A program made the translations under genes and the position numbers. The notes below the pieces were generated by a model. It worked only from the letters and a program-made list of their open reading frames with translations, did no database searches and was not told the origin of the DNA. A stretch of DNA of 64,000 nucleotides from an uncultured Clostridia bacterium (GTDB lineage Bacteria > Bacillota > Clostridia > Christensenellales > CAG-314), in contig CAKQEP010000001.1 in assembly GCA_934230325.1 (NCBI GenBank), positions 148,739 to 212,738 on the forward strand, in the 5' to 3' direction. Shown here in pieces: positions 5,431-63,863 of this stretch. The stretch's first letter is position 1. Each line of letters starts with the position of its first letter.

Positions 5431-5474
5431 AAAAATTATTTTAACATATTCCTGTAAAAATTGCTCGTTTTTTG

Positions 5475-5503
5475 TTGACAAATTTTTGTAATCGTGCTAA
5501 TAA
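5475..5503 (+). promoter_or_regulatory. sigma-A type promoter for riboswitch-thiT
   Basis: TTGACA, 17-nt spacer, TAATAA. Confidence 0.5.
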
Positions 5504-5517
5504 TATCAGCGTAAATA

Positions 5518-5629
5518 ATATATCGGGGTGCCCAACAGGCTGAGAACATACCCGCTAAACCTGTCAAGATAATGCTTGCGTAGGGAAAATACACGTTTTT
5601 TCACCTCGCGGTTTTGCGAGGTTTTTTTG
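5518..5629 (+). promoter_or_regulatory. TPP (THI-box) riboswitch with terminator expression platform
   Basis: cggggtgcc...ggctgaga...accc...aacctg...ataatgc..gcgtagggaa matches the THI-box consensus. It is followed by hairpin acctcgc-ggtttt-gcgaggt and a T-run (5603..5629). Confidence 0.9.
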
Positions 5630-7149: not shown

Positions 7150-7233
7150 GCGGATGTGGCGAAACTGGCAGACGCGATAGACTTAGGATCTATTGTTTAT
7201 GACGTGCAGGTTCAAGTCCTGTCATCCGCACCA
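7150..7233 (+). tRNA. tRNA-Leu (anticodon UAG), class II with long variable arm, CCA encoded
   Basis: Acceptor gcggatg/catccgc. Anticodon arm ataga-CTTAGGA-tctat. T-loop ttcaagt. Ends in CCA. Confidence 0.9.
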
Positions 7234-7392
7234 GCGTCGGCTACGCTTTTAGTCGGTACACAAAAGACTTGCTCGTCGGCAAGTCTTTTTGTATACCTTC
7301 CTTTATGCTTGCCGACTTGCTTACTTCGGTAGTACTTAAAACTTTTTTGTGACGCTTCGCTTCGCTCGCTATTCCGTCGCTGTCGCTCCTTA
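7234..7392 (+). repeat. tRNA-linked conserved element, copy 1 (159 nt; contains terminator-like hairpin 7262..7292)
   Basis: Block-wise homology to 62405..62562 (minus strand). Block A gcgtcggctacgcttttagtc abuts the CCA. Then a hairpin, block B ttcctttatgcttgccgactt, tagtac, and block C aaaacttttttgtgacgcttcgcttcgctcgctattccgtcgctgtcgctcctt. Confidence 0.7.
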
Positions 7393-7413
7393 CAAGTCCT
7401 GTCATCCGCACCA
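7393..7413 (+). repeat. exact 21-nt duplicate of the tRNA-Leu 3' end (T-loop C56 to CCA)
   Basis: caagtcctgtcatccgcacca is identical to 7213..7233. No tRNA 5' half precedes it. Confidence 0.95.
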
Positions 7414-7506: not shown

Positions 7507-8682
7507 TTAACAAACCACTTCGTCCATTAAACTTGCCAACAGTTTCATTCGCTCTTCTACCATATCCCATTTTTGAGAGCCTTTAGAAATAAGTGCAATT
7601 AAGCGATATTTTTCAATTTGTTCTTTCGTATACCCCTTAAATTCTTCATCTAATGCTGTTGCTTTCGCAGAACTAAAGGCGGACAACTTTTTATTAACGA
7701 TATACAATTGATTAAGTTTTTTCGTGGCATTTTCCACAAAATTTACGAAGCCATATCCGCATAACATAAATAAAAATTTGACAAATCTTTTATTTATACC
7801 CGAAGAAAACTTCCAAGTGTTATCTGCAGCGAGGCCGTCCAATTGCGCAATCAATAAATTCGTTCTGGTCAATGCTACTCCCGTAATACCTTGTGAGTTT
7901 TTAACATATTCAATAATATCAGCATCGATACCGCCCATAGGTAATTTTTCTTCAAATATTCCAATGGCAGCATAAAATAATTTATCAAACTCCTTTCTTT
8001 TATCTTCCCACGATAATTTACCTAAAAGATTTTTGCTATTCACGCGCAATAAATACTGCTCTAATTGTGAATCGGGAATAGAGTTTATAATTTCTCCAGC
8101 ACGTAACCGTTCTTGATTTTGAACGAATCTAAAATATTCTGCAATTACATTGTCATCTTGATGAGAAATATAAGTCAGAGCCATATTATAAGAATCAAAA
8201 TCCGATCTCATTAAACTTGCAAGAGTATTGTAGGTCAAAAAAACTTTTTGACCTTTAAGGTATCTTCTATATAGTTTTATTGCTTCAGTATCTTTGCCTT
8301 TATTATTTTTTATATCGTATTCATAAGATTCAACATTGTCTTTAATGATTCTTTTTGACAAATCATCATTTACGGAAAAATCACCTTGTGTAAACTCATA
8401 AATAGTTGTCAATCTTTGTTGACCATCCACCACTTCTGTGTCTGCTCCTTTATCATTGCGCTCTGTCAAGTTTCTAATTATAACACTTCCGACAGGGTAT
8501 CTTGACAAAATACTAAAAATAAGTTTTTCTTTAAAATCTTGATTCCAAACTGTACCGCGTTGGTATGATGGTTGTAAATCTAATCGATCATTTCCTATTT
8601 GATTTTTAAAAGCCGTAATTTTACTCATTAAAGTTGCAATAGGAAGAGATTCGTTATTAAATTTTATTCTTGTTTCCGCCAT
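7507..8682 (-). CDS. DUF262 (ParB-like / GmrSD N-terminal type) domain protein, stand-alone
   Basis: Motifs QPSYQRGTVW and VVDGQQRLTTI (DGQQR) are typical of DUF262. There is no DUF1524/HNH C-terminal domain. SD AAGGAG. A+T-rich relative to the flanks. Confidence 0.75.
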   Translation of the reverse strand: MAETRIKFNNESLPIATLMSKITAFKNQIGNDRLDLQPSYQRGTVWNQDFKEKLIFSILSRYPVGSVIIRNLTERNDKGADTEVVDGQQRLTTIYEFTQGDFSVNDDLSKRIIKDNVESYEYDIKNNKGKDTEAIKLYRRYLKGQKVFLTYNTLASLMRSDFDSYNMALTYISHQDDNVIAEYFRFVQNQERLRAGEIINSIPDSQLEQYLLRVNSKNLLGKLSWEDKRKEFDKLFYAAIGIFEEKLPMGGIDADIIEYVKNSQGITGVALTRTNLLIAQLDGLAADNTWKFSSGINKRFVKFLFMLCGYGFVNFVENATKKLNQLYIVNKKLSAFSSAKATALDEEFKGYTKEQIEKYRLIALISKGSQKWDMVEERMKLLASLMDEVVC

Positions 8683-8782
8683 AAATATCTCCTTATATTT
8701 GTTATTTTATTAGATTCTAGCATAAAATTAAGAAATTGTCAATAGTTTTGAGTAAACTTTAATAGAATCTTTATAAAATTTT

Positions 8783-8807
8783 AAAAGCCGAGTTTTTCTC
8801 GGCTTTT
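8783..8807. terminator. intrinsic terminator (bidirectional shape)
   Basis: aaaagccgag-ttttt-ctcggctttt. Confidence 0.7.
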
Positions 8808-8810
8808 ACA

Positions 8811-9113
8811 CTATATATCTGCACTAATTTCATAAATGACATTGTCATCGTCGAACAAACTCATTTGCGAATACATAATTGGTGAAGTTGCATAACAAGT
8901 TGTTATCAACTTCTTCAAGTGTAAAGCATTAAAGTTTAACGCAAAATAGTTAAAATAATTGCTTTTATAAGGATCATCACAATGGCAAAAAACGGTTTTA
9001 TTATTAAAATATTTCCTATAATGCCTTAACTTATTTTCAATTGTGGTTAATTGAGTATAAAATTCATCGGTTTTCCCAGCACTGAAGATTTGCAAATTGC
9101 TGTTGGTTACCAC
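8811..9113 (-). pseudogene. N-terminal about 100-aa fragment of an M.EcoRI-like adenine DNA methyltransferase
   Basis: TDEFYTQ..IENKL.HYRKYF..KTVFCHCDDPYKSNYFNYFALNF..L.LKKLITTCY matches, from my memory of the sequence, the N-terminus of M.EcoRI (SDEFYTQ..IENEL.YY..HF..KVVYCNCDDP..SNFFKYFAVNF..LGLKKLIASCY). The ORF stops before the NPPF catalytic motif. GTG start with SD AAAGGAG. Confidence 0.6.
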
Positions 9114-61501: not shown

Positions 61502-61576
61502 GCGGGAGTGGCTCAGTGGTAGAGCGCTGCCTTGCCAAGGCAGATATCGCGAGTTCGAATCTCGTCTCTCGCTCCA
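61502..61576 (+). tRNA. tRNA-Gly (anticodon GCC), CCA encoded
   Basis: Acceptor gcgggag/ctctcgc. Anticodon arm ctgcc-TTGCCAA-ggcag. T-loop ttcgaat. Confidence 0.9.
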
Positions 61577-61703: not shown

Positions 61704-62201
61704 ATGAAAACGACAATTCGCAAAGTTAGGAAAGGCGACGAAAACATTTTGGCTTATATTCAAACCGAAAGTTGGAAAGCCGCGTTTGCGGGTATCATCG
61801 ACGACGAAACGTTGAAAAAATGTACAAACATTGAAAAAGCAACGGATATGTATTATCGGCTTCTTAATGACGACAAAGGAAACGGTTATATTCTTGTTGC
61901 GGAAGGAACGCCTCGCTGTATCGCATACTGGGATGCGGCGCGAGATGCGGAATTTGCAGGAAAGGCTGAATTGATTTGTATCCATAGCCTGCCGGAAAAG
62001 TGGCGTAAAGGCTATGGCAGTCAGATGATGAATCGTGTTATTAAAGATATAAAAGCCGCAGGTTTTTCCGAAGTAGTGTTGTGGGTATTTAAAGATAACA
62101 CTCGCGCAAAAACTTTTTACGAATCGATGGGATTTACTCTTACCGATTTTTCTAAACGGTTTATTGATACCGAAGAAGTCCTCTACTCATTAAAATTATA
62201 A
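61704..62201 (+). CDS. GNAT family N-acetyltransferase
   Basis: IHSLPEKWRKGYGSQMM and VLWVFKDNTRAKTFYESMGF. Confidence 0.8.
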   Translation: MKTTIRKVRKGDENILAYIQTESWKAAFAGIIDDETLKKCTNIEKATDMYYRLLNDDKGNGYILVAEGTPRCIAYWDAARDAEFAGKAELICIHSLPEKWRKGYGSQMMNRVIKDIKAAGFSEVVLWVFKDNTRAKTFYESMGFTLTDFSKRFIDTEEVLYSLKL

Positions 62202-62220
62202 TAAAATTGTACAAACCAAA

Positions 62221-62250
62221 AAAGACTTGTCAACAAGCAGGTCTTTTTTT
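62221..62250. terminator. intrinsic terminator (A-run/T-run flanked)
   Basis: aaagacttgt-caaca-agcaggtcttt followed by a T-run. Confidence 0.6.
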
Positions 62251-62251
62251 G

Positions 62252-62383
62252 GTTGCGACTACAAAGCGGAAAAAACGGGAACCCAAAAAGTTGTAAAACT
62301 TTTTGGGAAAAGGAGCAGCAAGCGTAAAAGCAAAAAGACCGTCCAAAGGACAGTCTTTTGCAAAAATCGCTTTGCTGCGACGT
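62252..62383 (-). repeat. degenerate extra copy or fragments of the tRNA-linked element
   Basis: Read on the minus strand: acgtcgcagcaaagcg, hairpin gcaaaagactgtcc/ggacggtctttttgc, acgcttgct-gctcctt (block C with an internal deletion of about 26 nt), a second hairpin, then ccgctttgtagtc (3' half of block A). Confidence 0.4.
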
Positions 62384-62404
62384 TGGCAAGGGTAGCAGGA
62401 TTCG
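62384..62404 (-). repeat. exact 21-nt duplicate of the tRNA-Gln 3' end (T-loop C56 to CCA)
   Basis: tggcaagggtagcaggattcg is identical to 62563..62583. There is no tRNA 5' half. Confidence 0.95.
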
Positions 62405-62562
62405 CAAGGAGCGAAAGCGACGGAATAGCGAGCGAAGCAAGCGTCACAAATAAGTTTTGAATACGGCTGTACTAATAAAGTCGGCAAGCAAATAAGGAAC
62501 AATAAAAAAGGTTTGCTTGTTTGCAAACCTTTTTTATTGTGACTACAAAGCGTAGCCGACGC
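62405..62562 (-). repeat. tRNA-linked conserved element, copy 2 (158 nt)
   Basis: Minus-strand order: CCA, gcgtcggctacgctttgtagtc, hairpin aaaaaaggtttgc/gcaaacctttttt, ttccttatttgcttgccgactt, tagtac, aaaacttatttgtgacgcttgcttcgctcgctattccgtcgctttcgctcctt. Confidence 0.7.
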
Positions 62563-62637
62563 TGGCAAGGGTAGCAGGATTCGAACCTACGAATAACAGG
62601 GTCAGAGCCTGTTGCCTTACCGCTTGGCGATACCCCT
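62563..62637 (-). tRNA. tRNA-Gln (anticodon CUG), CCA encoded
   Basis: The reverse complement aggggtatcgccaagcggtaaggcaacaggCTCTGACcctgtt...ggttcgaatcctgctacccttgcca folds as a cloverleaf. Confidence 0.9.
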
Positions 62638-63297: not shown

Positions 63298-63444
63298 TTT
63301 GACTCAATATGTTAAACAAAAAATATTTGCATTTTTGTCGGCAAAACTCTTGTACGTATGTTTGTTTTTGCGACAAAATATTTTTTTCTTGTATTAAGGC
63401 GAAACGCGTCTTTAAGGTGTTACCTCAAAGACGCGGCAAAACGT

Positions 63445-63768
63445 GAGAGCAGTCTATAAGCCGAGTTCTGTATTTGACGGCCATCTATCTACGCCTTGCG
63501 TCTCCGCAAGGCTCCAGCGACATATCGAGACGTCGGGCAAACGTTTTATCTCATTTCTTGCACCGAGCGGGGTTTACATTAACGACGAGTTACCACGCCG
63601 TTCGTAGGCTCTTACCCTACGTTTCCACCCTTGCCAAAATTTTGGCGGTTTATTTCTGTTGCACTTTCCTTAAAGTCGCCTCCACCGGGATTTCTCCGGC
63701 GCTCTGCCCTATGGTGCTCGGACTTTCCTCGTTGGGGAGTTGCCCCACCGCGACCGTCTGGCTGCCTC
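63445..63768 (-). ncRNA. rnpB: RNase P RNA, bacterial type A
   Basis: Minus strand: gaggcagccagacggtcgc...GAGGAAAGTCCGAGCaCCATAGGGCAG...AGTGCAACAGAAAtAAACCGCC...GGTAAGAGC...GTAAACCCC...ACAGAACTCGGCTTAT. Ends are approximate, within about 5 nt. Confidence 0.9.
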
Positions 63769-63863
63769 GATTATTATTTTATACCACTCTTTTAATTTTG
63801 TCAACCGTTGGCAACAAGTACAAGCAATGCAAATACAATATACGTATAGGGAGGGCAACGACA

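Follow-up and report, generated by a model that had tools for sequence, protein, structure and literature searches.

tRNA genes are classic landing sites of mobile DNA, and a direct repeat of the tRNA 3' end that starts in the T-loop is the classical signature of an island inserted by a tyrosine integrase. To our knowledge, one recombinase serves one tRNA in the known cases. Casposons, which depend on the Cas1 casposase, also insert at the 3' end of tRNA genes and are characterized by a long, ruler-like target duplication (14-15 bp), terminal inverted repeats, tandem arrays and small non-autonomous copies; their known hosts are mostly archaea. The CTX phage attP(+), acting with XerCD, and integron attC sites integrate as folded single strands.

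The sequence analyzed here lies behind a tRNA-Gln(CTG) gene in a 64,000-nt stretch of DNA from an uncultured Clostridia bacterium (the window). It shares with tRNA islands and CIMEs the direct repeat of the tRNA 3' end starting in the T-loop, the intact tRNA, the serial accretion of copies and a presumed need for an enzyme in trans, as well as a presence/absence polymorphism with precise borders (179 nt, 10 contigs). In contrast to these systems, the element is only about 130-170 nt long and gene-less, and one family uses the same junction at about a dozen tRNA species instead of one fixed attP core. Furthermore, no cognate integrase or full-length parent was found around about 140 loci, and the conserved module of the family, designated M, occurs also away from tRNAs. 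The likeness to casposons and to CRISPR spacer integration, drawn from general knowledge of these systems, consists of the tRNA 3' end as target, a long repeat of possibly fixed length, the arrays and the small non-autonomous form; unlike casposons, the element has a repeat of 20 nt and no terminal inverted repeats. MITEs and REP/BIME-like repeats are similarly small, multicopy, gene-less, hairpin-rich, intergenic and strain-polymorphic. The element differs from MITEs in the lack of terminal inverted repeats (by eye, its left end GCGTCGGCTACGC is unrelated to the right-end reverse complement GCAAGGAGCGAAAGCG), in its strict target position and in its 20-nt repeat of a specific gene (tRNA nt 57-76), compared with 2-10 bp of arbitrary sequence. 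With the CTX attP(+) and attC sites there is a resemblance only: the long imperfect hairpin of the element could rebuild a target duplex and allow shape recognition at many targets, but no dif-like or attC-like consensus is present.

The features of the locus, together with those of a companion locus at tRNA-Leu(TAG), are collected in Table 1. The tRNA-Gln gene is preceded by a consensus promoter (TTGACA-16-TATAAT, 62697-62670), and its encoded CCA is followed on the minus strand by 158 nt (62562 down to 62405) and then by cgaatcctgctacccttgcca (62404 down to 62384), which is identical to the last 21 nt of the tRNA at 21/21 positions. The chance expectation for an exact 21-mer repeat within 200 nt is ~200/4^21, roughly 5e-11. 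The Leu locus has the same layout, with a 159-nt element followed by caagtcctgtcatccgcacca. End-to-end alignment of the two elements gives 126 identical positions (79%), in agreement with the earlier note, which had described homologous elements of almost equal length, each closed by an exact copy of the tRNA 3' end. The homology begins at the first base past the CCA (GCGTCGGCTACGCTTT in both) and ends at the repeat; the differences between the two copies within the terminator-like hairpin are compensatory changes. These are the only family copies in the 64-kb window, and both of their repeats are perfect with respect to the resident tRNA.

Table 1. Features of the tRNA-Gln and tRNA-Leu loci, in coordinates of the window.
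Feature	Position	Strand	Evidence or remark
tRNA-Gln(CTG), intact, CCA encoded	62563..62637	minus	ARAGORN and Rfam tRNA (60 bits); target and left border of the element
Gln element, 158 nt	62405..62562	minus	sequence; 79% identity to the Leu element
Terminator-like hairpin of the Gln element, 18-bp stem and T run	62499..62540	minus	terminator scan, consensus fold
Outer stem around this hairpin, GCGTCGGC paired with GCCGAC	62555-62562 and 62480-62485	minus	consensus fold
Degenerate inverted T-arm copy	62453..62468	minus	AGCCGTATTCAAAACT vs AGCAGGATTCGAACCT, 12/16 identical
Module M, 42-nt variant, GACGCTTGCTTCGCTCGCTATTCCGTCGCTTTCGCTCCTTGC	62404..62445	minus	right end of the Gln element
Direct repeat GAATCCTGCTACCCTTGCCA	62384..62403	minus	exact copy of tRNA-Gln nt 57-76
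Native trailer of tRNA-Gln	62290..62383	minus	adjoins the tRNA directly in empty strains
Partial copy of the left part of the element, CGCTTTGTAGTC and terminator hairpin	62200..62275	minus	local alignment, inverted-repeat pair
tRNA-Gly	61502-61576		ARAGORN, Rfam
tRNA-Leu(TAG)	7150..7233	plus	ARAGORN, Rfam
Leu element, 159 nt	7234..7392	plus	module M at 7351-7393
Direct repeat AAGTCCTGTCATCCGCACCA	7394..7413	plus	exact copy of tRNA-Leu nt 57-76

No ORF was found inside the 158-nt Gln element, nor any promoter-like site. The DNA fold of its hairpin region has a z score of -4.5. Since the element carries this terminator hairpin directly behind the tRNA, the tRNA gene stays both intact and terminated. 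The native trailer has a terminator of its own beyond the repeat (62333-62359), so that M and the repeat sit between two terminators. The degenerate inverted copy within the element was compared with AGCAGGATTCGAACCT, the reverse complement of tRNA-Gln nt 51-66; such a copy is far clearer in other family members (L042, L032 and L006/L074/L111). By eye only, ACGCTTGCTGCTCCTT in the native trailer resembles an internally deleted M. The partial copy further downstream aligns locally to the Leu element with a score of 58 (shuffle maximum 51) and to the Gln element with a score of 46, which is inside the shuffle range. It exists in empty strains too and may be what is left of an earlier insertion, or else a terminator module that is shared.

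The Gln locus is flanked by GNAT acetyltransferase and thioesterase genes, the Leu locus by HIT and GmrSD-type genes. The possibility that the 55 kb between the two inverted copies form one large mobile element was rejected, as the genes scanned in this interval are ordinary chromosomal ones (FeoB, FakA, Rpe, RsgA).

Module M forms the sharply bounded, near-invariant right end of the element, with a length of ~40 nt and the consensus GACGCTCGC(AG)GCTCGCTATTCCGTCGCT(TC)GCTCCTTAC. It measures exactly 40 nt in 50 of the 109 distinct copies; the longer forms carry 3-60 extra bases, all at one internal point. By eye, this internal spacer shifts the reading frame between copies, and M was therefore rejected as a small peptide. 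Outside the 18-mer GCTCGCTATTCCGTCGCT, the core of M that served as the census query, all positions but three are conserved at 94% or more, and the base after M is a purine in 104/109 copies. The scan of species-representative contigs (one genome per species) returned at least 117 stretches; the loci retrieved contain 131 matches to the 18-mer among those listed, comprising 119 true family members and 12 chance matches. A scan of metagenome contigs added 34 loci with 37 true copies. Together, the matches listed amount to about 150 M copies, found in gut genomes and metagenomes of Christensenellales-like bacteria; nearly every host is a Christensenellales-like Clostridia MAG of human, ruminant, horse or chicken gut origin. 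Several contigs terminate within or next to M-family copies.

The family appears to be undescribed. No paper containing the M sequence or describing such a family was found in the literature, and IMG/VR holds no exact M matches. Among the Rfam 15 covariance models, only tRNA, RNase P and TPP reach the gathering score in the window; across the element nothing relevant appears at E values up to 10, and a search of eighteen family loci gave no match. A plasmid origin was discarded because BLAST matches in plasmids are at chance level only, and a phage origin because the sole 'phage' match, MT835800.1, is a mislabelled bacterial contig with hydrogenase genes. A search of the metagenome contigs with a window-specific pattern for a donor copy gave 0 matches.

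The relation of the family to tRNA genes is apparent from the genome census. Among the matches listed, 48 M copies have a tRNA gene on the same strand within 900 nt upstream, and in 21 of these 48 the next 20 nt match nt 57-76 of that tRNA at 16/20 positions or more, the match being perfect in 15 of the 21. These tRNA-linked copies represent 16 loci and 11 tRNA species among the matches listed (Arg-CCG, Gln-CTG, Leu-CAA, Leu-TAG, Lys-TTT, Pro-GGG, Ser-CGA, Ser-GGA, Ser-TGA, Thr-GGT and Val-GAC), and in all 21 the repeat matches the tRNA gene just upstream. Copies at Leu-GAG have a 1-nt deletion. Copies at Val-CAC, Ser-GCT and Ala-CGC come in addition from the metagenome contigs, which also contain a decayed one at Gly-CCC. 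The family is large, is polymorphic and reaches beyond the two copies known to the earlier note, with the same junction (TTAC or TTGC, then nt 57) throughout: the element ends in TTAC (...CTCCTTAC) in 19 of the tRNA-linked copies and in TTGC (...CTCCTTGC) in 2. Because this last C is constant, the demonstrably tRNA-specific repeat is nt 57-76, that is, 20 nt. The same note had placed the start of identity at C56 of the T-loop; the constancy of the junction stands, whereas this C56, the last C of M in the Gln element, is the constant last base of the element, and strict identity runs from nt 57.

In many genomes and at about a dozen tRNA species, the elements have the same architecture and a uniform size (~130-170 nt), always beginning immediately behind the CCA end. 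Left ends differ between subfamilies, and the left border can be shared between different tRNAs from the first base past the CCA, as for L023 at Ser-TGA and L056 at Ser-CGA. The 20-nt repeat ends exactly at the CCA in the window copies and in L023, L056 and L035. In L006, L042, L054 and L074, the similarity runs past the CCA, the sequence after the repeat resembling that after the tRNA. Tandem arrays of two or three units occur at L006, L013, L053, L063, L075, L094, L159 and L190, and two different elements stand in series at one tRNA-Ser in L095. Regarding age, some repeats do differ from the resident tRNA, a point raised in the earlier note, and the divergence is common to the related genomes L035/L117; this indicates older insertions and a repeat that is not generally maintained. 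Perfect repeats, such as both of those in the window, look young. An element-borne distal repeat was considered for L063 and L094 and rejected: with mismatches at only 3-5 positions, these two are compatible with decay, as L064 is with recombination between two tRNA-Val loci.

Related strains show an empty site at the Gln locus. Ten contigs (L123-L132) from near-identical strains, picked by a thioesterase allele (P0001) with 99% identity to the thioesterase of the window, carry the same tRNA-Gln locus minus exactly 179 nt, which correspond to the 158-nt element plus the 21-nt repeat. They come from Hadza and other human gut samples, with the same gene order and near-identical DNA. The empty allele reads ...GTAGGTT-CGAATCCTGCTACCCTTGCCA-ACGTCGCAGC..., the tRNA being joined directly to the sequence that follows the repeat in the window; it has a single tRNA-Gln, only one copy of nt 57-76 and no fragment, and nothing larger than 179 nt is present in either allele. 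This base-precise absence in near-identical strains identifies the Gln element as an insertion/deletion polymorphism and not as a product of tRNA-cluster decay, an alternative that had been envisaged for the 21-mer duplication. The empty alleles fall into two haplotypes, differing by an 81-nt indel and by the orientation of the terminator loop, and the filled allele has features of both. Because the filled allele is thus intermediate, one insertion is more parsimonious than two deletions, although a deletion between the 21-nt direct repeats that flank the hairpin is possible and would yield the same empty site. The Leu site is also variable between relatives: in L147/L148, the tRNA-Leu is followed by unrelated DNA with neither the element nor the GmrSD gene. 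As the whole downstream region differs in these two relatives, they provide no clean empty site for the Leu copy.

Taken together, the precise polymorphism, the shared interior, the constant junction, the arrays and the near-invariant M agree with a non-autonomous element whose enzyme is encoded elsewhere. The 158-nt sequence is probably (at roughly 0.6) a copy of a small, gene-less, non-autonomous mobile family specialized for tRNA 3' ends. Against this reading stands the screen of the surroundings: the ORFs around 105 and, in a second round, 139 loci were clustered and examined for simple recombinase motifs, and no enriched recombinase, transposase or nuclease emerged within 8 kb; the clusters contain only ABC ATPases, AraC regulators and translated repeats. 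No Cas1 was seen near the copies in this screen of the loci, whose motifs were not Cas1-specific, and no free circular or junction form of the element was seen. There is also no integrase in or beside the window elements, which supports the earlier note in setting them apart from classical tRNA-integrating islands. In L087 and L202, a large serine recombinase gene stops immediately upstream of the family member. These recombinases were rejected as the enzyme of the element: with junctions inside the acceptor strand of the same tRNA, they have the appearance of separate prophages that inserted there independently.

The enzyme of such a non-autonomous family would recognize M on the element and the universal T-loop (GGT-TC-RA) on the target, and would join the two at position 56/57, leaving 20 nt of tRNA on both sides. 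Two routes can be envisaged. In the first, the cuts would be staggered by a fixed 20 bp from the T-loop, which would reach the CCA end in any tRNA; the left borders common to different tRNAs favor this route. In the second, a small circular or hairpin-folded form already carrying nt 57-76 would integrate in the Campbell manner. The inverted T-arm copies and the similarity past the CCA favor this Campbell-type route, or else truncated tandem copies. Because of the similarity past the CCA in four loci, a fixed 20-bp stagger would alone be insufficient, and truncated tandem copies or a longer homology would be needed. The inverted T-arm copy and the long hairpin also suggest a folded single-stranded intermediate that may mimic the target duplex. 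The lack of terminal inverted repeats and the variable left end make the element a poor fit to a two-ended transposon, and the cognate-specific inverted T-arm present in some elements is not predicted for a target-blind one.

M occurs in four other settings as well. It is found in arrays of short hairpins spaced by TATATCATC, often just past tRNA terminators; in a MITE-like unit with at least 12 copies in one Christensenella MAG; in the loops of GC-rich hairpins; and in tRNA 3' fragments or nearly complete tRNA copies, where it separates the T-stem from the acceptor strand (L013, L020, L030, L090, L208). When filled and unfilled contexts are compared by eye, M takes the place of a TC dinucleotide in each of them: GGT-TC-RA in the T-loop and, again by eye, CTG-TC-GACC, ATA-TC-ATC and ACC-TC-GACC outside it. 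In locus L086, the left flank belongs to one locus type and the right flank to another, which implies recombination among M copies.

To the left of M, several members carry a fresh inverted copy of the cognate T-arm and, after it, a short copy in the sense orientation. The order in L042 is tRNA, trailer, reverse complement of nt 45-62, CAAG, nt 46-54, M, nt 57-76 and the trailer again; L032 contains the reverse complement of nt 60-73, and the tRNA-Thr elements of L006/L074 and of L111 each track the T-stem of their own tRNA. Alignment scores are higher against the own tRNA than against other tRNAs (mean 14.5 vs 10.9, p = 0.04), an effect driven by about half of the elements. In the window subfamily, the inverted segment is degenerate and not clearly cognate-specific, the window copies ranking mid-field, and a role of the tRNA-complementary segment as a guide was rejected for this subfamily on account of the weak statistics (p about 0.04-0.05).

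These findings only partly support the view of the earlier note that the tRNA T-arm/acceptor architecture is recognized and not a fixed core sequence. The T-loop sequence GGTTCRANTCC is nearly universal and could itself be the fixed core. The full T-arm/acceptor fold is not required, since M stands equally in hairpin repeats away from tRNAs and, within tRNA fragments, where the T-stem meets the acceptor strand. Moreover, the internal inverted cognate T-arm of several members makes target information borne by the element possible. What is targeted could be the sequence of the universal T-loop, or no more than a TC within hairpin DNA. A bolder proposal, which we regard as rather unlikely, is that M marks a new insertion system: an enzyme would insert M-bearing DNA at TC in hairpin or T-loop-like DNA, the inverted target copy within the element would serve as a hairpin guide or mimic, and retargeting would require a few base changes and no new recombinase.

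Among the alternatives to a non-autonomous mobile family, the one that survives best, though improbable, is the scar of a classical island or prophage that carried its own integrase, an internal deletion having left the two att arms and the small element being immobile. The direct repeats of the tRNA 3' end match the tyrosine-integrase signature; tRNA genes are integration hot spots here, as the serine recombinases upstream of the members L087 and L202 illustrate, and tRNA 3' fragments come after island-like cargo in L024 and L025. However, such scars would hardly be uniform in size and architecture at about a dozen tRNA species in many genomes, nor share one interior between different tRNAs. 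Near-identical strains differ by precisely these 179 nt, neither allele has anything larger, M is found in non-tRNA contexts too, and the screen within 8 kb of about 140 loci yielded no integrase.

Slightly less credible is a by-product of template switching at hairpins, of the tandem-inversion-duplication type, in which the polymerase would snap back at the terminator hairpin, copy trailer and tRNA 3' part backwards and then switch back, with M as a separate small insertion. The direct-inverted-direct layout of tRNA segments and the hairpin junctions of several members (L042, L006, L111) are of this kind, the elements of L006/L074 and L111 track their own tRNA-Thr sequences, and the excess of own-tRNA over other-tRNA scores points in the same direction. 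In the window, the tRNA 3' part with its trailer and the right half of the element form, by eye, a long quasi-palindrome centered on the terminator loop; the predicted DNA folds support only the terminator and the outer stem, not the whole quasi-palindrome. Against this origin, the Gln element is unlike the local trailer, as the empty strains show, and shares 79% identity with the tRNA-Leu element, so that its interior is not local. A rare spontaneous event would not recur at many loci with the same foreign, conserved 40-nt module at about a dozen tRNA species, and in the window subfamily the inverted segment is not clearly cognate-specific.

A selected functional module (a spare terminator with a decoy or antisense unit that would influence tRNA maturation by pairing with the T-arm/acceptor strand, or an sRNA with a tRNA-like 3' tail) is equally hard to credit, for although M is extremely conserved across species, a strong terminator is supplied directly behind the tRNA and an internal segment is complementary to the tRNA 3' part in some members, the closest relatives live without the element, the repeats decay in older copies, M and the repeat lie between two terminators with no promoter-like site in the element, no Rfam family matches, and the frame-shifting spacer in M (by eye) leaves no peptide.

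The family thus presents a gene-less element of ~160 nt that uses one base-precise junction at about a dozen tRNA species while each tRNA is kept functional, with a 40-nt M that is nearly invariant across many uncultured gut species. It may account for some of the contig breaks that these metagenome assemblies show near tRNA genes, and annotation pipelines could mistake the tRNA 3' fragments that it leaves for prophage att sites. For the abundant Christensenellales of the human and ruminant gut, the element is a strain-level marker. The enzyme, if found, could prove to be a recombinase or a transposase guided by the universal T-loop or by folded DNA that mimics this loop; if true, this would be a new way of choosing safe insertion sites and a possible tool.

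Between the tRNA-Gln element and the neighbouring GNAT gene, the terminator hairpin occurs in three forms among near-identical strains (the window and contigs L123-L131), which differ by the orientation of the loop, TTGTTG versus CAACAA, and by SNPs in the arms. This variation looks like hairpin flipping through recombination between the arms. In the same region, seven of the related contigs (L123-L128 and L130) carry an 81-nt insertion, at window positions ~62205 to ~62215, which includes a small hairpin of its own, CCACCGCTTGGAGCGGTGG, and is absent from the window and from L129 and L131. The segment ACGCTTGCTGCTCCTT of the native tRNA-Gln trailer is also found in the strains that are empty at this tRNA, and its sequence may represent the trace of a far older insertion.

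Features in the window and at loci L087 and L202 (~, approximate position)
Feature	Position	Strand	Context
TPP riboswitch	window 5514-5603		upstream of ThiT/YuaJ-like transporter gene
Small defence-like islet	window 7507-9113		directly 3' of Leu copy
GmrSD_N-domain gene	window 7507-8682	minus	part of islet behind Leu copy
Short EcoRI-methylase-like ORF	window 8811-9113		part of islet behind Leu copy
Terminator hairpin	window 62219-62247		between element region and GNAT gene; compared with L123-L131
ACGCTTGCTGCTCCTT	window 62300-62320		native tRNA-Gln trailer; resembles module M minus centre
Class A RNase P RNA	window 63440-63769		adjoins thioesterase gene
Large serine recombinase gene end	L087 ~1600-1660	module M on plus	cognate tRNA Leu-GAG
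Large serine recombinase gene end	L202 ~5440-5490	module M on plus	cognate tRNA Val-CAC

Behind the same tRNA-Leu, the relatives L147 and L148 carry wholly different genes at the place of the islet. In L149 (a Logan contig of sample ERR7746751), the 5' half of tRNA-Leu(TAG) is fused to a 3' half that differs from the usual one and has an acceptor strand unable to pair with the 5' end; the fusion is an assembly chimera or else a genuine hybrid that an integrating element left behind. The TPP riboswitch and the RNase P RNA of the window are both ordinary.

Module M, the near-invariant right end of the element family, also occurs outside the tRNA-linked copies. The class 2 loci (L067, L106, L025, L027 and others) are arrays, 100-300 nt long and often placed right behind tRNA terminators, in which short GC-rich hairpins are separated by TATATCATC up to the midpoint and by the complementary GATGATATA beyond it; no Rfam family matched these arrays. 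Within one genome, the MAG MGBC114095, a MITE-like repeat is present in many copies (L003, L005, L018, L033, L050, L084, L093, L096 and L108), with units such as GAGATTTCTCCGCTACG...CGAAATGAC, both with and without an internal module M. MT835800.1 (L145, L152), a record of the phage collection labelled 'Bacteriophage sp.', was rejected as a phage: it is a bacterial chromosomal contig with genes for a HydABC-type hydrogenase, NAD synthase and Dak kinase, and at its end a divergent family member is repeated in tandem.

At L087 and L202, the end of a large serine recombinase gene lies immediately upstream of a family member, and a degenerate copy of the cognate tRNA 3' end overlaps its final codons. 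This overlap suggests prophages that use these same tRNAs, recombining within their acceptor strand.
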